Source: an uncultured delta proteobacterium (lineage in GTDB: Bacteria; Myxococcota; Myxococcia; Myxococcales; Myxococcaceae). Taken from it: a DNA stretch of 64,000 bases. The stretch covers positions 1 to 64,000 of the forward strand of contig CAVYSY010000058.1 of NCBI GenBank assembly GCA_963771175.1, written 5' to 3'. Position 1 is the first letter of the stretch. Every line of letters begins with the position of its first letter. Made by a program: the position numbers and the translations under genes. Shown piece after piece: positions 1,938 to 57,128 of this stretch. A model generated the notes under the pieces. It did not search any database. It was not told the DNA's origin and saw nothing but the letters and a program-made list of their open reading frames with translations.

Positions 1938-2376
1938 TCAGGCCTCGTACAGACTGGCCATGAAGTCGCTAAAGCTGCCAGCGACGGGGTGAACGAGCAT
2001 TCCCACGGAGACGAGAACGACTGCCGCGTGTTCAGGAGAGGCGCGGTAATCAAAACAGAGGAACTCGCCCCCCGAGGTGAGCGCGAAGGGGAAGATGCCC
2101 GCGGGGACGTGAGGCTCGAGGATGCCGTATACACGGCGGAGGGAGTATTCGTCCCGCTCTTCGTCGATGCTGACCGTCAACAGGACACAAAAGACGTCCC
2201 TGCCCGAGCCGACATTGAAAGCAGAGGGCTCGGGACTCATGCCCTGGTGCGCCACGACGAGACGCCTGTAGTCGGAGGGAAGCCTCACTCCCCACTGCCG
2301 CTCAAGGAGCTCAAGCTCATGCGGGGTCCGCAGGATGAGATGCATCCCAGACATAGGGCTCCCAGCACACGGCCAT
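1938..2376 (-). CDS. SMI1/KNR4 family immunity protein
   Basis: Motifs LERQWGVRLPSDYRRL, IFPFALTSGGEFLCFDYR and VAGSFSDFM. Probable start MAVCWEPYVW at 2376, right after the toxin stop, with one frameshift. Confidence 0.85.
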
Positions 2377-2378
2377 GG

Positions 2379-4210
2379 CTACGTGCCTCCTCCCCAGATA
2401 GCCATTCCTCCTGTGTGAGGAGCGGCGAGCTGGTGGGCTCTTGTCGTGATGAGCTGCATCCTGCCGACATCCTGGTGGTGATGCCATGAATAGCCAGTGG
2501 GCGGCTTCGTGGAGGTTGGCAGTTTGTCGATGGCTTCCGGGCTCAGTCCGAGCGCGCGCCCCAGCGAGGGGTCTTCACGAATGGATTTGAACAGCTTCTG
2601 GTTGGCCGCCTTGTAGTGCGCGAGGCGATCCCTGCTTCCGATGTGCACGTCATCCAAGAGGGTTTCAAAGCTCGTGTCGAACTCAGGAAAGCCATCCTTG
2701 TCGAACCCGATGGTGGTCTTTCCATCCGAGATCCTCTGCCCGGAACGATTGCGCCCCAGATTCACGATGGGTTCGGGTGGGTTCCTCGTATTCTTGTACG
2801 GGATGATCCTGCCGTCGGAGGTGAGCTGAGGCTTGCGCCACGGCTCGATGAATTGCAGCCGGTATCTGCCCGGCGAGGAACGTGGGCTCCCCCCGGAATG
2901 GGGGAGGGAGTTGGCACTCCCGTTACCGCCCGCCCCCCGTGCTCCGGTGTTGGCCATGTGCAGCACATAGGTGGCACTGAGGGCGGGAGCCGCGGCGCTG
3001 ACGACGCCACCCACGGGCACGGCCACCAACCGCACCGCCATCAGGCCGTCGCCCGAGAGGGAGAGAAGGGGAATGGAGACATTGCCCAGCCTTCCGCCCC
3101 AGGAGGCCGCCTTCGCGGCGCCCGCACCCGAGGTGCCCACCAGCAGCACCACTCCAGTGGCGAGGCGTGACATGGTGCGCACCCTCTCCGCATGGGGCTT
3201 GTGGCGAAACTCCTCCCAGTGCTGGGGCGCATTCTCGTACAGCGCTCGCACCACTCCCGGCAGCTGCGTCAGGCCCTCCAGCGTCTCTCCCGGGTGGAAG
3301 ACGAGCCGGTAGAGGCCCTCCACCGTGTCCACCACGGCCAGCACGGCCCCCTCCGCCACTGGCAGCAACACCCCGTTGTCTGGCGCGTAGAGGCCCACCG
3401 GGAGCGACCCGTGCGGCACCCGCAGGGTGTTGTCCACCGGGAAAAGGTACCCGCCGTCGATGGCGTAGAAGGGGCCCACCTCGAAGCGGTCGACGCGCAG
3501 GGTGCCGTCCTGCGCCAGCACCACCTCGCCCGCCTTCTGCACGGCCACACCCGTGGCGGGCTTCACCAGGTAGCCATCCGGGCGCACCACCAGCAGCCGG
3601 GCGAAGCGGCGCATGCGCGCGTGCAGCTCGTCGCGCGACACCGGGACGCCGCCCGTGGCCACCTCCAGCAGCAGGTGCGCCGCCATGCGCCGCGGGCCAA
3701 AGTTGCCCAGCGTCACCGGCGTGGCCAGCAGGTGCGGCAGCAGCTCCATTGCCTGCGTGGGGGAGAGCGTGCGTCGTCCTCGGGGAGTGCGCTCGTGGGC
3801 ACCCCAGCCTCCACGAGAAAGCCCTGAAACCAGTCCAAGCTCATGGATACGGCGTAGGGGCGACCGTCACCCACCCCATCCGGCCAGCCGAGTCTCTCCG
3901 CTCCCCAATCATCCAGCGGGTCCACCTCGGCAGGGTTGGACGTCGGGCGGCGGGCGAGCGTGCGGGCCCCCTCGTTCTCCGCCGTGCGACCATCCCAGTC
4001 TACTCGGGCGGTACGCGTTCCTCTGCGGGCGTGTCCAGGCGCTCAGGCGGGGTGAGGGACCAGTGGGCATTGGCCGATGAGCCCCCTGGGGGAGGCATCA
4101 GCGGCCCTCGGCACGCACCCGGACAGCAGCACCAGAGCCACCCCTGTCGTCAGCACACTGGCCAGGGACCGCCACCGCTGCGTCCCCGTGTCGAACGATG
4201 GCAGGAGCAT
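2379..4210 (-). CDS. Lipoprotein polymorphic toxin with C-terminal WHH/HNH nuclease; frameshifted in N-terminal part
   Basis: C-terminus GYSWHHHQDVGRMQLI..AH..PHTGGMAIWGGG is a WHH nuclease signature. N-terminal lipobox VLLSGC is in the frame starting at 4210. Main ORF is 2379-3749. Confidence 0.8.
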
Positions 4211-19229: not shown

Positions 19230-19699
19230 TCAGACTTCCTCGTCGGGCAGGAGCGTGAGTAGCAGCTCGTCGTCGGGACCGCGCGGGAGCCAACCGGGCG
19301 GCGGGGGCGTAGCGAGGAGTGCATCGCCGGCCTTGTCGGCGCGCTCCTTATGGGTTTCTGGGGTGAAGGCTACCCACGTGCCGAGCGCAACGGCAACCTT
19401 GAGGCGGTTTGCGTCGTCCAGCACGGCCGGCCAGCCGTTGGGGAGTACGCCCACAGTTCGCGCACGAGCTGGCCGCGCACTAGCCGCGTGACCTGATTGC
19501 TCCGCTCCGCTTCGGCCAGCAGTCCACTGAACACCTGCACTCCGGCGATGTCGTCCGGACCAAGCTCCTCGGCCAGCGCCACCAGCGACGCGGTCGGGCG
19601 CGCCTCGGCGAAGGCGGTGAGCGAGTCGTAACCTCGCTCGCGGACCCGCTCATACAGGCGCGCTTTGATGTTGCCCTCCCAAGCACGTCCGTCGCTCAT
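19230..19699 (-). CDS. Myxobacterial immunity-type protein (often auto-annotated as NUDIX hydrolase); frameshift near 19455
   Basis: MSDGRAWEGNIKARLYERVRERGYDSLTAFAEARPTASL continues in a second frame as LPNGWP..PPPGWLPRGPDDELL. The family is recalled as the neighbour of DUF2380 lipoproteins. Confidence 0.65.
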
Positions 19700-19885
19700 C
19701 TCCCACCACAGCGGATGAAGTTCATCGGGATCTCTGTACAACTTCATGCGCTCCGCGACGATCTGGGTGTAGCGCAGGCTCCGCCCCGGGCCAGGCGGTG
19801 GCTTCAGCGACACACAGGCGTTGGACAGGAGGGCCAGGGCAAGCAGCAGCCCCGTCCCCCTCGCCCCTGGCGAGTCAGCGCGCAT
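19700..19885 (-). pseudogene. Internally deleted lipoprotein toxin remnant (DUF2380-like)
   Basis: The lipoprotein leader MRADSPGARGTGLLLALALLSNACVSL..LRYT joins directly to a C-terminal-like IVAERMKLY. Only about 60 codons remain. Confidence 0.55.
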
Positions 19886-19933
19886 TGTCCACCCCAAAGG
19901 ATTCCAGGCGCGTGAGGTAGCGCCATGGCCGGC

Positions 19934-20920
19934 TCAGAGCTTCAGCCCGTTGCCGAGCCGTTTGCGCAATGGCTCCAACGCCCGCGTGGAGAGTCCCATC
20001 TCCCGGAGGGAGAGCTGGCGCAGCGCGGGTAGCGCCTTTGGCGAGCGGAAGGCCAGCGCGCCGTCCTCGCTCAGCTCGTTCCGATCCAGCTCCAGGCGCC
20101 GCAGGTTCGTCAGCACCTTGCTGGCCGCGAGCGCCTCGGCGCCTTCGTCGGAGAGGGAATCGCGGTTGAGGGCGAGCAGCTCCAACGACTGGAGAGGCTT
20201 CGCGCGGGCCAGCACGGCGGCGCCCTCGTCGGAGAGCCCCGTCGCCGTCAGGTAGAGCCGCACCAGGGAGGGCCGGAGCCCCGCGAGCGCCTCGGCGCCC
20301 TCGTCCCCGAGCTCCTCGTTGCCCGTCAGGCTGAGCGAGCGCAGGCCCGACAGGGCCTCGCTCCGGGCCAGTGAGGACACCCCCTCCAGGTCCGCCGAGG
20401 AAAGCACCAACCCCTCCAGCCGGCCGACGTGCGCGCCCGAGGCCAGCGCCTCGACAGCCGCGTTCACCCCACCGCCCGACAGCTTCAACCAGCGGACCTG
20501 CTCGAACCACGGCTGCGCCACGGCCCGGGCCAGCTCCTTCCCCTTCCCCTTCCGGACCTCCAGGTTCAGCCGGTGGATGGGCTCGAGCGCGAAGAGCGAA
20601 GCCCCATGCTCGGCGAGGTTCTCCTCGGAGAGGGACACCTCCTCGACGAAGCCGCGGCTGAAGTGGAAGTCGGACGCGCCCAGCTCCTTCAGTCCGGCCA
20701 TCCACGCCTTGCCGTGCTCCCGCAGCAGCGTATCCACCCGCTTGCGCAGGTAGAGCCGCCGCGCCGGATCCATCCCCCGACCAGCGAGCGCCACCTGCGC
20801 CCGGATGAGCTCGGCGCGTGGAGCATCGTCCTCGCGGAAGGCCTCCGCGCAGGCCAGACGGGCCTCCAGTTCCTCCGGGTGGGCGGCCACTCGAGCCACC
20901 AGCGCGCTATCAGGCTTCAT
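19934..20920 (-). CDS. TIGR02996-like N-terminal domain plus leucine-rich repeats (328 aa); retron-associated gene
   Basis: N-terminal LVARVAAHPEELEARLACAEAFRE.D.PRAELIRAQ, then FSRGFVE, then repeats LRSLSLTGNEELGDEGAEALA, LVRLYLTATGLSDEGAAVLA and LRRLELDRNELSEDGALA. ATG 20918-20920 overlaps the RT stop 20917-20919. Confidence 0.85.
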   Translation of the reverse strand: MKPDSALVARVAAHPEELEARLACAEAFREDDAPRAELIRAQVALAGRGMDPARRLYLRKRVDTLLREHGKAWMAGLKELGASDFHFSRGFVEEVSLSEENLAEHGASLFALEPIHRLNLEVRKGKGKELARAVAQPWFEQVRWLKLSGGGVNAAVEALASGAHVGRLEGLVLSSADLEGVSSLARSEALSGLRSLSLTGNEELGDEGAEALAGLRPSLVRLYLTATGLSDEGAAVLARAKPLQSLELLALNRDSLSDEGAEALAASKVLTNLRRLELDRNELSEDGALAFRSPKALPALRQLSLREMGLSTRALEPLRKRLGNGLKL

Positions 20921-22345
20921 CGTCCGAGCAGCTCCTTCACCTCGCGCTGCCAGCGCGCGCCCAGCTCCGGGTGCACCATCCGCACATAGGCCGCGTAGCC
21001 CTCCAGCCAGCGCTCGAAGTCCGGCCGGCCCCTCGCCTGCGAGGCCACCCCGTGCCTGCGGCAGTTGGCGAGGATGGCCTTGAAGCGGCGCCGCTCCTCG
21101 CGCGGGATGGAGACCTTCTGGTTCACCGTGAGGCCCGTCACCCGCTGGCGCGAGCCCTGGCGCATCACCCTCCGCTTCTTGCCGTTCTCGGCGAAGCCCT
21201 CCTGCTGGAGGATGGCGTTGACCCACCACAGGAAGCGGCCCAGGCGCTCGGGGGGCTCGCGGAAGGAGAAGGACAGGTCATCCGCGTAGCGCGTGTAGGT
21301 GGCGCCGAACCTCCCGGCCAGCGCGGTGAGGCGCGCGTCCATGCGCCGGCAGACGAGGTTGGCGATCGCCGGGGACGTGGGCGCTCCCTGCGGCAGCATG
21401 CCCGGCCACACCACCGTCCCGTCCGGCAGCTTCGGACGGTGCGTGGCGAGCCCGGCGAGCACTCCGGCCACCTCCTCGCCATAGCCGTGCGCCAGGAACA
21501 GGCCCTTCACCCGGCGGTAGTGCACCGTGGGGAAGAAGTCCTCGAGGTCCACCCGCACCACCGCCGTGGCCCCCACGTGCGGCTCGGCGTTGCTCACCGT
21601 GGAGCGCCCCTCGATGAAGCCGTGCGCGGCCGGGTGCGGCGGCATGTGCGAGAGCACCTTGTCGAGGAGTGCCCGCTGCACCTCCTTGAGCCTCTGGCGC
21701 GGCGCCGAGATGCGGCGCACCCCGCCCGAGCGCTTGGGCACCTCGAACTCCACGTAGCCCGAACCGGCCGCCGTGCCCGGACGCATCAGCGCGTCCAGCT
21801 CGGAGTCGTCCACGCCCACCAACTCCGCCACATCGGCCCGGGTGTGCAGCGCGGGCAGCTTGCCCGAGACGGGCGGCGGGCGCCTCGCGGCTCCTGGAGA
21901 AGCCGTGAATCTCGTTCCGGAAGAGGCCGAAGTGCCAGCCGGTCGGGTTCCACCCGCCCACGGACCTGCTGTGGGGATGGCGAGGCGGCCGGGCCCGGCG
22001 ATCCGGTGGCGCCACGTCCGCGAGCCCCAACCGGCGCACCGAGGCCCGAGCGGCATGGGCGACGCGCGAGTCCGGGTCCTTCACGCGCTGGCGGAGCCAC
22101 CGGGCCGCCATCACGCCGGAGAACAGGAGCGGGAGGTGCCGCACGCCCTGGAGCCGCTCGCGAGGGTCCACGCTGCGCAACCTGCGCTCGACGGGTGCCA
22201 GCCACGAGCGGCTCACGTAGAAGCGCGCCACCTCGTACTCGGCGAGTCCCTGGTGACGCTCCAGCAGTTCGGTGATGCGCTCGTAGTTCGCATCCGGGTC
22301 CGCCAGCAGGGGCTTGAGTTCGAGGAGGAGGCTGGCGAGGTTCAT
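20917..22345 (-). CDS. Retron-type reverse transcriptase with N-terminal HEAT-like helical domain (about 475 aa; one frameshift near 21865-21915)
   Basis: Motifs PKRSGGVRRISAP, region X SNAEPH (NAxxH), DLEDFFPTV, LPQGAPTSP, YTRYADD, and region Y QRVTGLTVN (VTG). The N-terminal part is in ORF 21278-22345 (MNLASLL..VKDPDSRVAHAAR..GWNPTGWHFGLF). Confidence 0.93.
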
Positions 22346-22376
22346 GCCGTGTACCCAGAGTGGCCGAGGATGAAAC

Positions 22377-22539
22377 CGGTGCTCCTGGAGCCGCCGCCAC
22401 CTGCACGGCAGAGGCAGACGAGGTCAGGGTAGCCCGCCAGGCGGACCTCGTACTGCATCGTTCTTCAATGGGTAACGTCAGCAGCCGCGACGTGACATCG
22501 CGGACGGAAGGCTGGCTGCACGCGACCCCAGGAGCACCG
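22377..22539 (-). ncRNA. Retron msr-msd non-coding RNA
   Basis: Perfect 12-bp inverted repeat cggtgctcctgg (22377-22388) / ccaggagcaccg (22528-22539). G residues lie just inside the 5' arm on the transcribed strand. msr-like stems gcagcc/ggctgc and ccgcga/tcgcgg (22481-22519). msd-like stem gcagacgaggtc/gacctcgtactgc (22414-22456). The region ends about 30 bp upstream of the RT start. Confidence 0.8.
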
Positions 22540-22621
22540 TCGACAAGCTCACCACAACCCGGGGCCGAGTGGGAAGGCCATCCGCGGCCCTTGCCCTGCA
22601 TCGGTGTGGTAGGAGAAACGC

Positions 22622-23857
22622 ATGGCGGACTTTGGTATCGACGTCGACCCATGTGAGGTCGGCCTGGACGCGCGGCGGCTGCGGCGCATCGACACGCATT
22701 TCAGCCGGTATGTTGATGACGGGCGGCTCGCGGGCTGGCAGGTGATGGTCTCGCGCCATGGCAAGGTCGCGCACCTGACGTCGTACGGGCTCGCCGACAA
22801 GGAGGCCGGCCGCAAGGTCGAGACGGACACCCTCTGGCGCATCTACTCGATGACGAAGCCGATCACCTCGGTGGCGGCGATGATGCTGTGGGAAGAGGGA
22901 GCATTCGAGCTCTCCGATCCCGTCAGCCGGTGGCTGCCCGAGTTCGCGGAGCCGCGCGTCTACGTCGGAGGGTCGGCGAGCAAACCCGTCACCGTGCCCG
23001 CGATCGAACCCATCCGCGTGTGGCACCTGCTCACGCACACCGCGGGGTTGACGTACGGCTTCCTCCGGGTGCACGTCACCGATGAGCTCCACCGGCTCCG
23101 AGGCTTCGAGCTCGGCGCGCCGGACGGCTTCGACCTCGCCGCGTGCGTCCGCGCGTGGGCGGAGCTCCCGCTCTCCTTCCAGCCCGGTGCGGAGTGGAAC
23201 TACTCGGTGGCGACGGATGTGCTCGGTCGGCTCGTCGAGGTCGTGTCCGGACAGTCACTCGACACCTTCTTCGCGGAGCGCATCTTCGGCCCGCTCGGGA
23301 TGAAGGACACCGCGTTCTGGTGCCCCGAGGACCGCCAGCATCGCCTCGCCGCGCTGTATGCGATGGCTCCCGGGCGCACCGGGCCGGTCCGCGCCGAATC
23401 GGCCGGAAAGCGCATCACGCAGCCTCCGTCCTGGCTGTCGGGCGGCGGCGGGCTGGTGTCGACGACGCGCGACTACACGCGCTTCACCTGGATGCTCCTG
23501 AACGGCGGCGAGCTCGAAGGCACGCGGCTGCTCTCCCCGCGAACGGTCGAGTACATGACCCGGAACCACCTGCCCGGAGGGGCGGACCTCACCTCCTTCG
23601 GTCGGCCGCTGTTCGCCGAGACGCGGTTCGACGGAGTCGGATTCGGGCTCGGCTTCGGCGTGGTCATCGACCCGGTCGCCTACCGCACGCTGTCGAGCGA
23701 GGGCGAGTACCACTGGGGCGGCATGGCGAGCACCGCGTTCTGGGTCGATCCGGCCGAGGACCTGACCGTCGTATTCATGACCCAGCTCCTCCCGTCGAGC
23801 ACCTACCCCATCCGCACACAGCTCCGCCAGCTCGTCTACCAGGCGATCGTCGACTGA
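22622..23857 (+). CDS. Serine hydrolase, beta-lactamase/esterase family
   Basis: SMTK (SxxK), LLTHTAG, WNYS and WGG motifs, with an AGGAG RBS. Confidence 0.93.
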   Translation: MADFGIDVDPCEVGLDARRLRRIDTHFSRYVDDGRLAGWQVMVSRHGKVAHLTSYGLADKEAGRKVETDTLWRIYSMTKPITSVAAMMLWEEGAFELSDPVSRWLPEFAEPRVYVGGSASKPVTVPAIEPIRVWHLLTHTAGLTYGFLRVHVTDELHRLRGFELGAPDGFDLAACVRAWAELPLSFQPGAEWNYSVATDVLGRLVEVVSGQSLDTFFAERIFGPLGMKDTAFWCPEDRQHRLAALYAMAPGRTGPVRAESAGKRITQPPSWLSGGGGLVSTTRDYTRFTWMLLNGGELEGTRLLSPRTVEYMTRNHLPGGADLTSFGRPLFAETRFDGVGFGLGFGVVIDPVAYRTLSSEGEYHWGGMASTAFWVDPAEDLTVVFMTQLLPSSTYPIRTQLRQLVYQAIVD

Positions 23858-23863
23858 GACCTG

Positions 23864-26740
23864 TCAGCCCCCCGCCTCCGGCCCGGGCTCGTCCTCGTCG
23901 AGGAGCGCCAGGAGGGTGTCGCGCGTGCCTCCCGGGGCCTGCCGCACGAGGGTGTTGAAGCGCTGGTTGCTCGCCCGCACCCGCTCGCCGTGCGCCCGCA
24001 TCGTCGCCAGCACGTCCGGCACCATCCACGGCCGGGAGAGCACCTCCAGGTTCTGCGCCAGCTCGCGGTGGTTGCGCGGCGCGGTGAGGCAGGCGGACAC
24101 CCCGGGCTGCGACAGCGAGTAGCGGTAGCAGTCCACCGCGCTCGGGAGCAGCGTGTCCTGGGGCGCTCCCGGCGCGGGCCGCAGGAGGCGCCCATAGCAG
24201 GTGGAGGTGAAGGTCAGCATCCCCGTCCCGCGCGAGAGGGCCTCGGGGAAGAGGGCCGCCTCCGCGCCTGGATGCGCGGCGCTGTGGCGTGTCATCACCA
24301 CCGGCCACGGGTGCTGGCGCAGGGCCTCCAGTGCGATGTCCCGGTGGTGGGTGGAGAAGCCAAAGGCGCGGACCTTGCCCTCGGCGCGCAGGGCCTCGAG
24401 TGCCTCGAAGTTCTCCGCGTCCAGCCGCTCGCGCGAGCGCACCCAGAACAGCAGGAAGACGTCCAGCCGGTCCGTGCGCAGCAGACGCAGCGCGGACTGC
24501 ACGTCCCGCCGAAGCGCCGCGGCTCCCGAATGGTACGTGCCGGCCACCACCACGAGCCCGTCTCGTGCGGTGCGGCCGGAGCGCAGGAAGCGCGTGAGCT
24601 GCGTGTAGCGCGGCTCCCAGAAGAAGGCGTTCACACCGGCCTCACGGGCCTCGGCCAGCGAGCCGACCGACAAGCCGTGGGCCCCCGAGAGCACGAGCGG
24701 CGAGAGGCTCAACCCCGTGCGGCCCAGGGGGCGCCAGGAGCCGTGCAGCGGAGACTCGGGCGGTGGGCGCGCGGGGCTCGCCTTCGCCCGCTGGGAGCGT
24801 GTGGGCCGCCTCTGCTCGATATCGGGGGCGGCCGCGAAGACCTCGTCGGGGAAGACGAGCGTCATGGCCTCCAGATGCGAGACCACCCGCGCCGGCTCGG
24901 AGGGATCGCGCAGCGCGGCGCACAGGCGCTCGAAGGCGGGGCCATCCGCATGGCGCAACAGCCACGTATAGGCGGAGGCACGGACCTCCGCGTCCGGCTC
25001 GGGGACGGGCCCGTACAGCAGTCCGGCCAGGCGCTCGTCGAGGGTTTCACATCCCTCCAGCACCGAGGCCGCCGCGACCCGGGACATGGGCGAGGTATCG
25101 AGCGACAAGCGCAACAGCGCGCTCAGCTCCTCCCGCTCGCCCTCCGCCTGGAGCAACTCGGCCGCGCGTGCGCGAATCCACGGGTCCGGAGACCGCGCAC
25201 CCGCGAGCCCGGCGGAGCGCAACTCCGTGGATGGCACTTCATGTCGGCACGAGACGAGGCGTGCCATCGCCGCACGGCGCACCGATAGGTCCGGGTCGCT
25301 CGTGCAGGCCACCCGCGCGGAATCCGTATCCAGCACGGCGGCGCGGATCCACGGGTCCTCGCTCTCGGCCGCCGCGCGAATCTCCTCGGGGGAGAGTCCC
25401 TCCCGAGCCACGAGCCCGGCCAGCACCACCGCTCGGACCGAAGGGTCCACGTCCTTCGCGGTCCGAGCAAGAAGGGTCTCGTCCTCCGAGAAGACCGCCG
25501 CCTCCGCCACCGCGCGACGCTCGCGAGGAGAACGGGCCCTGGGCGCGAAGGCCACCAGCGCACGCGCATACGCCGCGATGGCCTCCGGAGCCACTGGCCG
25601 CTGCTCCCATGCGGCGATGACGACCTCGCGCACCAACTCATCCGGGTCATCGAACGCGGCCAGCACCTCCGCGCGGCTCTCCGGGTCATGAACGAGTCCC
25701 GAGAGCGCCGCGCGCCGCACGGCCGGCTCGGGGTGTCGGGCCAGGAGGCGGACGCGCTCCAACAGTCCAGCATGGGCCCTGCGCGCGGCCACCCACGCCG
25801 CCCAGCCCACCGCCCCCGGCCGGGGTGGTTCGTCGAGAATCCGCGAGGCGAGGGCCACGTCGTCCACATCGAGGCGTTCGAGCAGCGCACGGACCTCGTC
25901 CGCGGCATGGGGGACGCGCGGCTCATCCAGCCAGCGCATCGCGAGCCGGAGCGCCTCCGGGTCACGCCGCTCGCGCAGGCGGCGCCGTGCGAGGAACCGT
26001 AGCGGCTCGTGGGGGTCGCCGAGCCACTTCACCAGCTCGGACACGGGGATCTCCGAGGCGGGCATCCGTTCGAGCCGCGCCGTCACCACCGCTGGGTCCT
26101 CGTTGTCGAGGGCCCCTGGAGCCACCGGGAGCGGCGCGGGCACGGGAGGAGTCATGGAAGACGAGGTCGCCCCACCCCACACGCCTTCGAGGTACAGGGA
26201 GGCAGCTCTCACCGCTCGGTGTCGGAACGTCTCCGCCACGGCGTGCACCCGCCGCCGGACGAGAGGGTCCACCTCTCCGAACCAGGCCAGCGCCTGCACC
26301 GCCGCGTTGCGCACGCGCCAGAAGGGGTCCTCCAGCGCTTCCATCAGAAGGTCCAGTGCACCCGTCCCCGCCACCGAGGCCGCGGCCCGGATGGCGGCGC
26401 GGCGCACCCACCAGACCGGCTCCTCGTGGAGGGCTCGCGACGCCTGCGGCAACGACTCTTCCACCCCCAGCCGCGCCAGTGCACGCCAGGCCCGGTCTCG
26501 GACGCTGGGCATCGGATCGCGCAGGGCCTCCAACAGGGCCGGAGCGAAGCCACCATCCCGAGCCTCACCGAGCCGGCGCGCGGCGGAGGCTCGGACCTCG
26601 GCGTCCTCGTCCGTCAGCAGCGCCTGCCGCAGGGAATACCGGCCCGGGGGCACCGAGAGCTCCACGGCATCCACCGCCTCGCGCCGCACCTCGGCGTTCT
26701 CGTCGAGCAGCCGCACGGCGGCGGGGTCCAGGAGGGTCAT
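23864..26740 (-). CDS. HEAT-repeat protein fused to a C-terminal aldo/keto reductase-like domain (958 aa)
   Basis: Many DxxxxVRxxA repeats over about 640 aa, then WRPLGRTGLSLSPL..SALRLLRTDRLDVFLL..EGKVRAFGFSTH..YRYSLSQPGV. Confidence 0.8.
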   Translation of the reverse strand: MTLLDPAAVRLLDENAEVRREAVDAVELSVPPGRYSLRQALLTDEDAEVRASAARRLGEARDGGFAPALLEALRDPMPSVRDRAWRALARLGVEESLPQASRALHEEPVWWVRRAAIRAAASVAGTGALDLLMEALEDPFWRVRNAAVQALAWFGEVDPLVRRRVHAVAETFRHRAVRAASLYLEGVWGGATSSSMTPPVPAPLPVAPGALDNEDPAVVTARLERMPASEIPVSELVKWLGDPHEPLRFLARRRLRERRDPEALRLAMRWLDEPRVPHAADEVRALLERLDVDDVALASRILDEPPRPGAVGWAAWVAARRAHAGLLERVRLLARHPEPAVRRAALSGLVHDPESRAEVLAAFDDPDELVREVVIAAWEQRPVAPEAIAAYARALVAFAPRARSPRERRAVAEAAVFSEDETLLARTAKDVDPSVRAVVLAGLVAREGLSPEEIRAAAESEDPWIRAAVLDTDSARVACTSDPDLSVRRAAMARLVSCRHEVPSTELRSAGLAGARSPDPWIRARAAELLQAEGEREELSALLRLSLDTSPMSRVAAASVLEGCETLDERLAGLLYGPVPEPDAEVRASAYTWLLRHADGPAFERLCAALRDPSEPARVVSHLEAMTLVFPDEVFAAAPDIEQRRPTRSQRAKASPARPPPESPLHGSWRPLGRTGLSLSPLVLSGAHGLSVGSLAEAREAGVNAFFWEPRYTQLTRFLRSGRTARDGLVVVAGTYHSGAAALRRDVQSALRLLRTDRLDVFLLFWVRSRERLDAENFEALEALRAEGKVRAFGFSTHHRDIALEALRQHPWPVVMTRHSAAHPGAEAALFPEALSRGTGMLTFTSTCYGRLLRPAPGAPQDTLLPSAVDCYRYSLSQPGVSACLTAPRNHRELAQNLEVLSRPWMVPDVLATMRAHGERVRASNQRFNTLVRQAPGGTRDTLLALLDEDEPGPEAGG

Positions 26741-26777: not shown

Positions 26778-27428
26778 ATGCCCGACATGCTGGCCATCAT
26801 CAGCAAGGCCGTGTTCGAGAAGGAGGCGGCCGGCCGTGCCCCTGGCGAGGTGCTCCCCATCGACCGGTACCGAAGCGCCAGCAAGCACCTGGAGCCGCTG
26901 CGCTCTGGAGGGCGGCTCTTCCTCGTCACGGTGCGGCCGCCGACGGAGGCGCTCTGGCTGGTGGCGGTGCTCGACGGGCTGAAGTTCGAGGAGGGCGAGT
27001 GGCACGCCCAGCCCAACCACGTGCCCATCACCGACATCACCGCCCTCATCCCCCGCCTCCGCTTCGAATCGGGCAAGGGCATCCAGGCCGCGAAGGGGGC
27101 CCTGGGCATGTCGCTGCAGACGCCTCGAGCGCTGGCGTCCGGAGACGTGGAGCTGCTGTTGGGAGCGGGAGGGGGCTCGGTGGAGGAGCGCCTCGTCAAC
27201 CTCACCGCTCACGACGCGAGCGGGCCGCTGCCGTGCCTGTGCCGCCGCTGCCTGCCCGGGAGTGGTGAGCGCGCCGAGGCGGGAGGCATGTCGTTCACCC
27301 GCGCCCAGGTGGAGACCGAGGGCCGGGTGCTCCACTATTGGTTGCCCGACGAGCTGCGGCCCGACACCCGTCAGGTGGAGGAGGCGGTCCGGGGCGCGCT
27401 CACGTCACGCCTCCGCCCGCTCCGCTGA
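26778..27428 (+). CDS. Hypothetical protein with PCLCRRC motif
   Basis: GAGG RBS and coding-like codon usage. Divergent from the HEAT-AKR gene with only 37 bp between the starts. Confidence 0.7.
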   Translation: MPDMLAIISKAVFEKEAAGRAPGEVLPIDRYRSASKHLEPLRSGGRLFLVTVRPPTEALWLVAVLDGLKFEEGEWHAQPNHVPITDITALIPRLRFESGKGIQAAKGALGMSLQTPRALASGDVELLLGAGGGSVEERLVNLTAHDASGPLPCLCRRCLPGSGERAEAGGMSFTRAQVETEGRVLHYWLPDELRPDTRQVEEAVRGALTSRLRPLR

Positions 27429-38049: not shown

Positions 38050-39224
<1,175 letters not shown>

Positions 39225-39310
39225 CTGTCTGTCTCCTCGCCCGGGGAGCGACCCGGGCTTCAAAATCTCGAATCACTGGATGACTTGGGAACTCGCCTAA
39301 CGCCGTCGCC

Positions 39311-41706
39311 TCAGTTGCGCAGCGGCTTGCCCTTCTCGAGCATGAACATCATGCGGTCCTGGGTCTTCTCCTCGCCGATCAGGCACAGGAAGGCCTCCAG
39401 CTCCAGCTCCAGCAGCCGCTCCTCGGTGAGCAGCACGGAGGGGCTGGTGTCGCCGCCGGTGAGCACCCGCGCGAGCTTCTGGCCGATCTTCCGGTCGTGC
39501 GCGGAGACCTGCTCGTTGAGCTCCATGTCGTAGAGCATCATGTCGATGGTGGCGGAGCCGCTGGGCCCGGGCAGGCGGAAGCGCGTGGGGCGCGGAGGCC
39601 GGAAGCCCGCGCGGGCCATGCCCAGCACGCGCTCCTTGGCGTCCGAGAGCAGGAAGTCGCGGTTGGCGCTGATGCCGTCCTGCGCCGACAGGAAGCCCAG
39701 CTCGCGCGCCTCCTCGGCGCTGGTGGCCACCTTCGCGGTGCCGATGGTCAGGAACACCTTCTTGAGGAAGGGGAACGCGTCGAAGTCCTTGTCCGCCGCG
39801 TAGGCGCCGTACACGTTGCGCAGCAGCTGCATGGAGCCGCCGCCGCCGGGGATGAGGCCCACGCCCACCTCGACCAGGCCCATGTACAGCTCGGCCGAGG
39901 CCTGGATGGCGTTGCCGCCCATGGCCATCTCGGCGCCGCCGCCGAGGGTCAGGTTGAAGGGCGCCGTCACCACCGGCACCGGGCTGTAGCGCATGCGCTG
40001 GTTGGCCGCCTGGAAGGCCGACGCCATCTTGCGGATGGCCTCGAAGTCGCTCGCTCTTGGTCGCCATCAGCATGGCCATGATGTTGGCGCCGGCGGAGAA
40101 GTTCGACCCGTCGTTGCCGATGACGAGCGCCGTGGAAGTTCTTCTCCGTCTCGTCCAGCGCCGTGTTCATCATCGCGATGATGCCATCGTCGATGGAGTT
40201 CATCTTCGAGTGGAACTCGAGCAGCGTCGCGCCGTCGCCCATGTCCCACAGCGTGGCGCTGTCGTTGCCGGTGATCTTCTTGTTGCCGCGCTGCAGGTAC
40301 TCCACGCGCAGGGTGCGCGCGTTCTCCGGCACCACCTTCTCGGACTTGCTGGGGATGTCCCAGTAGGTGTCGCTGCCCGCCGGCCACGCCGTAGAAGGAC
40401 GTGCGGCCCGCGGCGAGCATCTGCTCCACCCAGGCGGCGGGCTTGAGGCCCAGCTCCTTCATGCGCTCCAGGCCCTTCTTCACGCCGTAGGCATCCCAGG
40501 TCTCGAAGGGGCCGAGGTCCCAGCCGAAGCCCCAGCGCATGGCGCGGTCGACGTTGACCACGTCGTCGGCGATCTCCGGAATGCGGCGGCTGGCGTAGGC
40601 GAGCACGTCGAGCGTAATCCGCTCGGCGAACTTCGCGGCCTTGTCCTGGCCGCTCATCACGCGTGGCCACGCGCTCGCGCACGTTCTCGACGTCCTTGGC
40701 GGCGCCCAGCGACTCGTAGCGCACCTTCTCCTGCGGCCGGTACTCGAGCGTCTTCAGGTCGAGCGCGAGGATGTCCTTGCCGCCGCTCGCTCCTGTCCTT
40801 CTTGTAGAAGCCGCCGCCGCTCTTGTCGCCGAGCATGCCCTTCTCGACCATCTTCTGAGGAAGTCGGGGGCGGCGAAGACCTCGCGCTCCTCGTCCTGGG
40901 TGAGCGTGTCGTAGCAGTTCTTCGCCACGTGGATGAAGGTGTCCAGGCCCACGATGTCCGCGGTGCGGAACACGGCGGACTTGGGGCGGCCCATGGCGGG
41001 GCCGAAGATCTTGTCCACCTCCTCGATGGACAGCTCGGCCTTCTGCATCTCCGCGATGGTCCGCATCATCCCGTAGATGCCGACGCGGTTGGCGATGAAG
41101 TTGGTGGTGTCCTTGCCGTAGACGATGCCCTTGCCGAGCACCTCCTCGCCGAAGCGGTGGACGCGCTTGCACCACCTCGGGGTCCGTCTCCGTGCCCGCC
41201 ACGAGCTCCAGCAGCTTCATGTAGCGCACGGGGTTGAAGAAGTGCGTGACGAGGAAGTTCTTGCGGAAGTCGGCGCCGCGGCCCTCGAGCATGCCCTCGA
41301 TGGACAGGCCCGAGGTGTTGGAGCTGATGATGGTGCCCGGCGCGCGGTGCTGCTCGACCTTGGCGAAGATGGCCTGCTTGACGGCCAGGTCCTCCTTCAC
41401 CACCTCGATGACCCAGTCGCACTCGGCGAGGCGGGCCAGGTCGTCCTCGAAGTTGCCGACCTCGATGAAGGGGAGCGCCTGCTCGGACACGATGGGGCTG
41501 GGCTTCTGCTTGCGCAGGTTGGCCAGCGCCCCGAGCGCGAACTTGTTGCGGAAGGACTTGGAGGCGGTGTCCTCACCGGGTGCCGCCTTGGGCGGCACGA
41601 TGTCCAGCAGGAGCGCGCGCACGCCGGCGTTGGCCAGGTGCGCGGCGATGCCGCTGCCCATCACGCCCGCGCCCAGCACTGCCACTTTGCGGATCCGCGT
41701 CGTCAT
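39311..41706 (-). CDS. 3-hydroxyacyl-CoA dehydrogenase/enoyl-CoA hydratase (FadN-like); multiple frameshifts
   Basis: Motifs [47 protein letters not shown]. Confidence 0.93.
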
Positions 41707-41822
41707 CGAAAGAGGCTCCCTACGTGAAAAGGATGGCGGGAGACATTGCGCCGGTTGATTCAAAAGTCAACCGGCTCTTGGGCCCCCCATGTCTCCCGGT
41801 GGAGGGTAAGGTGCGTGCCCCC

Positions 41823-55208: not shown

Positions 55209-55348
55209 GGGGCTCCTGGGGACGCGGGAAATCGCGCCTCCAGATAACGGCCGGCGTCAGCGCATTCAATCCTCATCTGGAGATGAGGGCCCTTGAACCC
55301 GCCGCCGTGGGGCCGGAACCCCACGGCGCGTCTTCACGCGGGAGCTGG

Positions 55349-57128
55349 CTACTCCTCCTCGGGTGGGGCCTCCATGTACTCGGGGGCGTTGATGCCCAGC
55401 AGCGCGAAGGCACTCCGCAGCGTCTGCTTCAGCGCCGCCACCATCGCGAGCCGGCCCTGCGTCTTCTCCGCGTCGCCGCTGATGATCGGGTCCGTCTTGT
55501 ACTTCGTGTAGTAGCTGTGGAAGTCCGTGATCAGCTCCTGGCAGAAGTACAGCACGTGGTGCGGCTCGAGCCGCTCGGCCGCGCTGGCCACCACGTCCGG
55601 GAGCTGGCTCATCTTCTTCAGCATCGCCAGCTCCTCGGGCAGCGTGAGCCGGGCCAGGTGTGCCGGGGTGAGCCCCTCCACCCCCACGAACGGCTGCCCC
55701 TTCTCCACCGCCTTCTTCAGGATGCTCGCGCACCGCGCGTGGCCATACTGGAAGTAGAAGACCGGGTTGTCCTTCGACTGCTTCTGCACCAGGTCCAGGT
55801 CGAAGTCGAAGCGCGCGTTCGCCGTCTTCATCAGGAAGAGGAACCGGCACACGTCCGGACCCACCTCCTGGATGAGATCCTCCAGCTCGAAGACCGTGCC
55901 CTTGCGCTTGCTGACCTTCACCTCCTCGCCGCCGCGAGTGATCCGCACGATCTGCACCAGCAGGAACTCGAGCCGCTTCGGATCCAACCCGAGCAGGATG
56001 GTCCCCGCCCTGATGCGCGGCGTGTGCCCGGCATGGTCCGCGCCCAGCACGTCGATGATGCGGTCGAAGCCCCGGTCGTACTTCTCCTTGTGGTACGCCG
56101 AGATCCGCCGTCAGGTACACCGGCGTCCCGTCCTGCCGGAGAATCACACGGTCCTCGTCGTCCCCGTGCTGGCTCGTCATCAGGAACGTGCCGCCCCGCT
56201 GCCGATCCGTGTACTGGGCCGCCTTGCTGTCCTCGCTCCGGACCTTCTCCGTCTCGCGCCGAGCCTCCGCGGCCTCGTACGTCGCGCCGCGCTTCTTGTA
56301 CTCCTCGGCGACCGCCGCCACCTTGCCCGCCGCGTGCAGCGAAGCCTCGCTGAAGAACACGTCGTGCCGGATGTTCGCCTGCTCCAGCGACGCCTTGATG
56401 GCCTTCAGGTTCTCGCGGACTCCCACCGCGATCGCCGCGGGCAGCCACTCGGACTCCGGCGCCGTCAAGTACCCCTCGCCCACCTCCTCCTTCCACGTCT
56501 TGGCGATGTCGATGACGTACTCGGCCGGGTACTCCCCCTCGCCGAGTTGGATCTGCTCGCCGAAGAGCTGCCGGTAGCGCTTGTAGACCGTCCGGCCCAG
56601 CGTCTCCACCTGCTTGCCGTAGTCGTTGATGTAGAACTCGCGCGTCACGTCGTGCCCGGCTGCCTCCAGCAGCCGCGACACCGCGTCTCCCATGAAGGCC
56701 CCGCGCGCGTGGCCGATGTGCACCGGGCCCGTCGGGTTCGCCGAGACGAACTCCACCATGACGCGCTTGCCCGTCGACTTCGGCGCCTGCCGCCCGAACG
56801 TCTCCCCGGCCCGCAGCACCTCGGCCGCCACCTGCTGGATGACCTGCTGCTTCAGCGTGAAGTTGAGGAAGCCCGGGCCCGCCACCTCCACCTTTTCGAT
56901 GATGCCCGCCGTGTCCACCAGCCCCTTCACGATGGCGTTCGCGATGTCCCGGGGCGGCTTGCCCTCGGGCTTCGTGAGCAGCATCGCCACGTTGACCGCC
57001 CAGTCACCGTGGGCCACGTTCTTCGGAGGCTCCACCGTGTAGCCCGGAACCTGCTCCAGCTTGAGCGTGCCCGCGGCCTTCAGCGCCGCGAGCGTTTCAT
57101 TGATGAGAGCGAAAACCTTCTGCCGCAT
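55349..57128 (-). CDS. argS: Arginine--tRNA ligase; frameshift near 56100
   Basis: EFVSANPTGPVHIGHARGA, EFYINDYG, LGADH, SKRKG, NPVFYFQY.HAR and the anticodon-binding domain. Confidence 0.97.

Follow-up and report, generated by a model that had tools for sequence, protein, structure and literature searches.

Most characterised retrons are defence systems made up of a non-coding RNA (ncRNA), a reverse transcriptase (RT) and an effector, as described in the abstracts of the retron literature. Retrons of type XIII belong to RT clade 10, which includes Mx162, Mx65, Sa163 and Ne144, and are defined by SWIM and WGR/HEAT partners; retron-like RTs of clade 11 and the outgroup are stand-alone msr-msd-RT cassettes (Mestre 2020, PMC7736814, main text). 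The window analysed here is a whole stretch of 64,000 nucleotides (positions 1 to 64,000 of contig CAVYSY010000058.1, assembly GCA_963771175.1) from an uncultured delta proteobacterium of the family Myxococcaceae. It carries a retron system of five parts: an msr/msd ncRNA, an RT, a fusion of HEAT repeats with an aldo-keto reductase (AKR) barrel, a divergent gene, X, with an EVE/YTH-type domain, and a TIGR02996 leucine-rich repeat (LRR) protein. An earlier note on this DNA had described a three-part system of ncRNA, RT and LRR protein; the HEAT-AKR gene and gene X also belong to it and lie outside the segment then delimited. All features of the system are on the minus strand of the window unless stated, and gene X is on the plus strand. 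At the level of sequence, the comparisons establish covariation in the msr/msd RNA, intact catalytic motifs in the RT, linkage of the protein partners and an altered AKR site. The locus is a retron of an undescribed lineage and probably a new type.

The RT core carries the motifs NAEPH (of the NAxxH form), YADD (21277-21288) and VTG (21133-21141), all three as previously pointed out. They are intact across the RT family, with ITG or ICG in a few relatives. The Pfam match is RVT_1. The 25 best PADLOC matches are all retron RT profiles, of which RT_XIII is the highest (382 bits), followed by RT_other and RT_outgroup (337 and 320 bits); with the covarying ncRNA fold, they confirm the retron identity that had been proposed. 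The nearest named relatives are Archangium and Vitiosangium (90-91% RT identity), which makes the host a myxobacterium. A FastTree phylogeny built from 157 RT cores groups 43 of them as this lineage (support 0.994), with a SWIM/WGR-linked and Mx162-like clade of 49 as its sister (0.896). With 53 of those RTs, IQ-TREE likewise recovers the lineage as a single clade (bootstrap 100), which lies outside that of type XIII (97) and whose sister group the tree does not settle. Both trees comprise retron-like RTs only, with tip labels taken from PADLOC matches and neighbours, not from a published reference set; in both, the lineage falls outside the SWIM-linked and Mx162-like clade, used as a stand-in for clade 10.

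The lineage resembles type XIII in its best RT profile, N-terminally extended RT, HEAT/ARM-type partner, myxobacterial and planctomycete hosts and largely vertical inheritance. It differs in an RT clade that is separate in both trees and in the lack of a SWIM/WGR partner: a SWIM/WGR homologue is present in the locus of 0/43 clade tips versus most tips of the type XIII clade, and the SWIM_XIII profile has no match among the scanned neighbours. The type XIII partners looked for were a SWIM zinc-finger/DEDE protein (cluster 114_1) and WGR or HEAT/ARM accessory proteins (clusters 216, 259, 1688 and 3262). Two type XIII RTs of the same genome (G000 C30, L299, and G000 C54, L300) score much higher on RT_XIII, at 627 and 533 bits, and the N-terminal part of that profile is unmatched by the window RT. 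The HEAT protein of the window carries a fused AKR barrel, and its match to one HEAT-ARM_XIII profile amounts to 42 bits over 117 residues, out of 1972 profile positions; L015 and L021 give no match, whereas the true partner in the same genome scores 1002 bits. One type XIII RT of G000 occurs with WGR and SWIM genes; the other resembles Mx162 and has a SWIM gene at a distance of about 4.6 kb. The profiles of clade 11 and outgroup RTs (RT_other, RT_outgroup) are second and third best for the window RT; L071, a real member of that group, reaches 491/462 with these profiles and is placed outside the window-RT clade.

The arrangement matches no described type in the literature examined, in keeping with the uncharacterised retron type suggested earlier. 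No LRR, TIGR02996 or reductase partner is named in the main text of Mestre 2020 (PMC7736814), no LRR, HEAT, aldo or tandem mention was found in the accessible text of the 2026 SPIRE survey (PMC13712802), and types XIII-XVI are not named in that of PMC12548924. Literature on TIGR02996, retrons with LRR, EVE or aldo partners, myxobacterial HEAT effectors and ncRNA arrays yielded no description of the system, within a coverage that takes in few subscription journals. Published supplementary lists may hold these RTs as unclassified.

The ncRNA is bounded by a perfect 12-bp terminal inverted repeat (22528-22539 and 22377-22388) with two occurrences in the window versus 0.03 expected from shuffles. 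Counting G-U pairs, the repeat is 18 bp long, and 31 nt separate its end from the RT start codon, ATG at 22345; the region folds with z = -3.46. Both the repeat and a structured ncRNA about 30 bp upstream of the RT had been noted from the letters alone. No match was found in Rfam. The same fold occurs beside homologous RTs: compensatory changes are present in 24/40 predicted pairs in an unfitted alignment of 26 copies, and among 90 distinct copies 92.8% of pairing cells pair, versus 71.7% in shuffles and 33-47% in slid controls, in an alignment that was fitted to the model and hence leans towards its structure. The window scores 171 bits on the ncRNA model built here, whereas the sequence immediately 5' of the genome's two type XIII RTs reaches no more than 13 bits. 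The a1/a2 stem runs on to an invariant AGC (22513-22511), in which the G at 22512 is unpaired; a conserved msr hairpin lies at 22485-22503. From these features G22512 is the candidate branching residue, with 22516 as the alternative. The predicted msd template extends over about 22400-22469, with approximate ends, and would give a multicopy single-stranded DNA (msDNA) of about 70 nt.

The HEAT-AKR fusion is the steadiest partner of the RT. It is the most frequent upstream family in neighbour clustering of 28 related loci plus the window. Among 401 genomes of the phylum, its AKR-like domain occurs in a distinct upper score tier in 46 (at least 312 bits; next 217), and the RT of this lineage in 50, which include all 46; kin are not independent, for which reason a Fisher test was set aside, and most of the 46 belong to one family. 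The two genes are adjacent in 35 genomes, with a gap of 205-399 bp that holds the ncRNA, and on split contigs in 2. In the further 9, all of the window's genus, HEAT-AKR lies 1.5-29 kb from the RT on the same contig and strand. The corresponding gap in the window (22590-23860) is an insertion hot spot in the host genus, with inserts of 1.5-29 kb and differing genes in 9/9 genomes. In the three opened of the four RT genomes without an upper-tier AKR, an LRR-type gene follows the RT and no AKR match is present. Selection by the AKR domain gave 80 metagenome loci. In 55 of these the ncRNA, the RT or both follow downstream (RT sequence in 48); a further 8 extend at least 1 kb downstream but show no retron, and 17 end too soon, so that 63 are informative. 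In 151 genomes of the planctomycete order around G411, the AKR domain occurs in 15 and a sister RT in 16; all 15 have the RT, adjacent in 12 as compared by eye.

This linkage persists through rearrangement. The retron half is inverted in L162 and L182 and still abuts the AKR gene; the LRR gene is inverted in L152; RT and LRR stay together in L008, L014 and L028, where HEAT-AKR and ncRNA have moved away. The domains of X are rearranged between lineages, yet kept in the locus. All three protein partners, as judged from gene order, stay with the retron through inversions, fusions and splits in two phyla.

The barrel is modelled with high confidence (pLDDT 92.6) and matches the (beta/alpha)8 AKR fold with Z up to 26.8 (root-mean-square deviation (rmsd) 2.3 over 222 residues). 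The catalytic tetrad of AKRs is Asp-Tyr-Lys-His. In an alignment with canonical AKRs of the same genome, the positions of Asp, Lys and His are occupied by F47, S/T75 and F/Y105, each in 72/72 sequences; the Tyr (Y52) is kept in 67/72. A different set is invariant, namely W48, E49, W106, H138, R158 and Y189, which suggests a site that is retained but altered. Several cofactor-site positions are also kept (S136, F184, P228-R229, N237). The domain resembles AKRs and SmbA in its fold and these positions, and differs from them in the replaced Asp, Lys and His, the new invariant set, the HEAT fusion and the retron linkage. These substitutions suggest that it is not a standard reductase; most likely it binds or consumes a nucleotide cofactor of NAD(P) type in a rebuilt site. 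Only generic AKR clusters were returned by the ESM Atlas. The catalytic Asp, Lys and His are likewise absent from a wide family of stand-alone AKR-like proteins (L312-L314, L212 and about 90 lower-tier matches), some of which occur as tandem pairs.

Gene X is present in 60/401 genomes of the phylum, including all 46 with HEAT-AKR; in 44, no more than about 6 kb separates it from the AKR domain, distances being compared by eye. Its structure is modelled with a pLDDT of 90.7. The N-terminal domain matches PH1033 (Z 10.1, rmsd 3.2 over 117 residues), YTHDC2 (Z 8.7) and VcaM4I (Z 8.5), and its 20 best fold matches are mostly EVE, YTH, ASCH and McrB N-terminal domains; the best Foldseek E for X is 2e-3, and no EVE match was obtained in Pfam. 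Invariant aromatics are F13, Y31, W60, W75 and F96. In fold and aromatics the domain is like the EVE/YTH readers (VcaM4I, THYN1, McrB N-domains, YTH proteins); it differs in its low identity (below 17%), its association with a retron, not a nuclease, and a reading role that is predicted. X is likely a reader of modified DNA. The C-terminal domain has the motif H-x7-CxCxxC, with H145, C153, C155 and C158 conserved in 45 of 47-49 rows, and is likely zinc-binding; no clear fold match was found for it (best Z 3.6, taken within the whole-X model). Kofleriaceae-type loci encode it on its own, in a gene that overlaps the start of HEAT-AKR, and there the N-terminal domain forms a fusion with the LRR protein. 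The ESM Atlas gave unnamed clusters and a weak EVE lead at 0.89; a cluster named for T4 Gp59 (0.92) was rejected, as fold searches gave no support. Elsewhere, the same EVE-like domain is joined to an HNH nuclease (L360), and in 7/10 opened non-retron loci it is fused with other TIGR02996 proteins; across L353-L362 the domain heads long TIGR02996-containing proteins and one HNH nuclease, without a window-type retron.

Table 1. Parts of the retron locus and the intervening passenger gene, in window coordinates.
Feature	Position	Strand	Description
Gene X, 216 aa, divergent from operon	26778..27428	+	EVE/YTH (PUA-like) N-domain 26778-27161 and small C-domain
HEAT-repeat/AKR-fold fusion	23864..26740	-	HEAT part ~24761-26740, AKR barrel ~23864-24736; Pfam HEAT_2, HEAT, Aldo_ket_red
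Serine hydrolase gene (beta-lactamase fold), passenger	22622..23857	+	Pfam Beta-lactamase; between HEAT-AKR and ncRNA
msr/msd ncRNA, 163 nt	22377..22539	-	a1/a2 arms 22522-22539 and 22377-22394
Retron RT, ~473 aa, 150-aa helical (HEAT-like) N-terminal extension	20917..22345	-	Frameshifted in this assembly
TIGR02996 and ribonuclease inhibitor-like LRR protein, 328 aa	19934..20920	-	Start overlaps RT stop; accessory, exchangeable

The RT had been described as HEAT-extended. The extension stands; its HEAT identity is weak (HEAT_2, E 0.036). It is out of frame with the RT core in this assembly, in frame in 20/20 extension-bearing related loci, and joined to the core in one frame in 9/9 loci of the same genus. 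Contigs from 4/4 sequencing runs (two studies, no run recorded as RNA) are without one base at 21889; one of them covers all 2.7 kb, with 43 differences and the single gap at 21889. Other genes of the window are also affected: a thiolase and a hydroxyacyl-CoA dehydrogenase are split and an arginyl-tRNA synthetase is frameshifted (38050-41763 and 55266-57128), which marks the assembly as indel-prone. In view of the in-frame relatives, the contigs without the extra base and the other frameshifted or split genes, one extra base near 21889 is very likely an assembly error, and a true frameshift, that is a pseudogene, is judged unlikely.

The locus is read here, at about even confidence, as an antiphage retron of the abortive-infection type, in which RT and msDNA would restrain the HEAT/pseudo-AKR protein and the LRR and EVE-fold parts would be exchangeable sensors. 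With G22512 as the priming site, the RT would copy the msd into a branched msDNA about 70 nt long. In complex with this msDNA, and probably through its helical extension, the RT would bind and restrain the HEAT/pseudo-AKR protein; that protein would be the core effector or an effector scaffold. A toxic, cofactor-consuming activity of the barrel itself is rather unlikely. EVE-type domains are readers of modified bases, and proteins with LRR and FGE-type folds act as scaffolds for recognition. The EVE/YTH-fold domain, as a modified-base reader, and the LRR or FGE-type protein, as a protein-recognition scaffold, may be the exchangeable sensors, and phage attack on the msDNA or on a sensor would release the effector. 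Defence is favoured because loss of the whole system and swapping of recognition modules are frequent and because elsewhere the EVE-like domain is found in combination with an HNH nuclease. The system has a patchy, all-or-none distribution (8/12 genomes of the window's own genus, 0/21 of another genus of the family), and a deletion remnant of the system is found in G007.

Several observations weigh against this reading. The locus stands among housekeeping genes at a conserved site, has the GC content of the genome average and is not in a defence island. No recognisable toxic domain was found in any partner by profile searches, which extends the earlier statement that the LRR protein has no obvious toxic motif. 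Among 78 loci returned from viral contigs, no member of the clade is present (best 39% identity, none with the N-terminal extension); plasmids gave no close AKR relative and two distant AKRs only. Family-level AKRs with at least 3 kb downstream show no retron in L165, L205 and L211, a wider family of similarly altered stand-alone AKRs occurs without retrons, and G241, G325 and G326 have a divergent RT and LRR without a HEAT-AKR match. The weight of a single family among the 46 genomes also counts here.

A domesticated non-defence signalling module is possible, if rather unlikely: msDNA-RT and a nucleotide-binding pseudo-AKR would form an SmbA-like switch in the stress response or development of multicellular bacteria. 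The housekeeping context, conserved site and ameliorated GC content are consistent with it, and vertically inherited retrons may be domesticated (Mestre 2020, PMC7736814, main text). SmbA, a barrel that binds c-di-GMP and ppGpp (PMC9944927, accessible text), gives nucleotide-binding use of the AKR fold a precedent and is a fold match of the barrel (Foldseek rank 23, E 2.7e-14), but it lies outside the 50 best structural rows, which are ordinary AKRs. Frequent whole-system loss, swapping of recognition modules and the pairing of the EVE-like domain with an HNH nuclease fit a conflict system better.

The LRR protein as the cognate effector or obligatory partner, with the other genes accessory, is the explanation closest to the earlier note, in which it was the cognate partner of the RT; it is considered quite unlikely. 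The annotation of the protein is sound: it passes the TIGR02996 cut-off (29.8 vs 29.05 bits), LRR_6 repeats are found, and its family profile matches ribonuclease inhibitor-type LRR structures. The RT stop overlaps its start at ATGA (20920-20917), as described earlier, and such translational coupling is present in most loci. RT and LRR stay paired where HEAT-AKR and ncRNA move (L008, L014, L028) and occur without a HEAT-AKR match in three genomes; the distance correlation with the RT is the same for LRR and AKR (0.67 each, 25 loci) and does not separate AKR from LRR as the closer partner. A further 19 free TIGR02996-LRR paralogues group apart from the retron-linked ones, weakly (support 0.65). 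A prediction of the RT-LRR complex scored 0.00 and is evidence in neither direction. Against an effector role, the LRR gene adjoins the RT in 34/46 HEAT-AKR genomes and is missing beside it in 12/46, where RT, ncRNA, HEAT-AKR and X stay; it is present in 23/31 metagenome loci having a complete RT with room and missing in 8/31. Its loss sometimes leaves a stub of 27-36 aa. In 12/13 planctomycete loci with room, an FGE-sulfatase-like gene stands 3' of the RT in its stead, so that the position behind the RT is open to exchange, in contrast to HEAT-AKR, which is retained (46/46 and 15/15). The LRR protein also evolves faster (mean distance 0.64 vs 0.42). The LRR gene downstream of close RT homologues is thus a recurrent coupled neighbour, and its consistent presence and cognate status were not upheld.

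A stand-alone retron, with neighbours linked only through inherited gene order, is highly improbable: most counted genomes belong to one family, and the EVE-like, TIGR02996 and altered AKR domains have retron-free occurrences as well, but the linkage holds across orientations, domain arrangements, two phyla and unrelated flanks, and the genes of the system are lost together.

The retron is accompanied by other genes. Of the loci tested, that of the window is the sole one with the serine hydrolase at this position; the hydrolase gene, an alkyltransferase-like gene and a lipoprotein fragment (19370-19897) were considered as parts of the system and rejected, being not conserved beside the RT outside the host genus. 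A scan for sigma-70 promoters and terminators found none. In L003 (6972-9825) a MoxR-type AAA ATPase gene and a vWA-type gene, assigned by eye, form a pair directly 3' of the LRR gene. At 1938-3749 of the window, a polymorphic-toxin-like gene bearing a WHH nuclease tip precedes a SUKH immunity gene; the N-terminal part of the toxin-like gene matches PADLOC PDC-M17A.

The genome of the window has one ncRNA copy. Tandem copies are present in 24/62 RNA-bearing loci (two copies in 21, three in 2, four in 1), each copy with its own arms and an msd that differ between copies. Natural msr/msd arrays of 2-4, weakly up to 6, are seen in L008, L012, L015, L020, L161, L388, L389 and others; the retron array of the literature, as far as its accessible text extends, is an engineered one. 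G408 and G409 (loci L014, L028, L315-L322) have 5 and 7 copies across several contigs, and their RT-LRR pair is unlinked from HEAT-AKR. The dispersed copies are not linked to this single pair, and some occupy corresponding positions in the two genomes; they are possible trans-acting retron RNAs. Weaker ncRNA homologues, some arrayed, adjoin the AKR gene in 5/12 planctomycete regions. The existence of natural arrays and dispersed msr/msd copies suggests that one RT can serve several RNAs. A multi-RNA immune system is a tentative extension with a low likelihood: one RT with several msr/msd RNAs, in arrays or in trans, would make a panel of msDNA baits and control the aldo-keto barrel as a nucleotide-consuming effector, together with a modified-base reader and swappable LRR/FGE sensors.

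The system adds a widespread, well-bounded lineage to the retrons. The HEAT/pseudo-AKR protein, EVE-fold reader and LRR/FGE module are not among the retron effectors described in the accessible literature, which indicates either a new effector chemistry or a new non-defence role of msDNA. Several RNAs per RT, if true, would bear on broadened phage sensing by retrons and on multiplex editing tools. Because intact contiguous loci are present in cultured myxobacteria (L005, L006), the old question of the role of msDNA in myxobacteria becomes directly testable.

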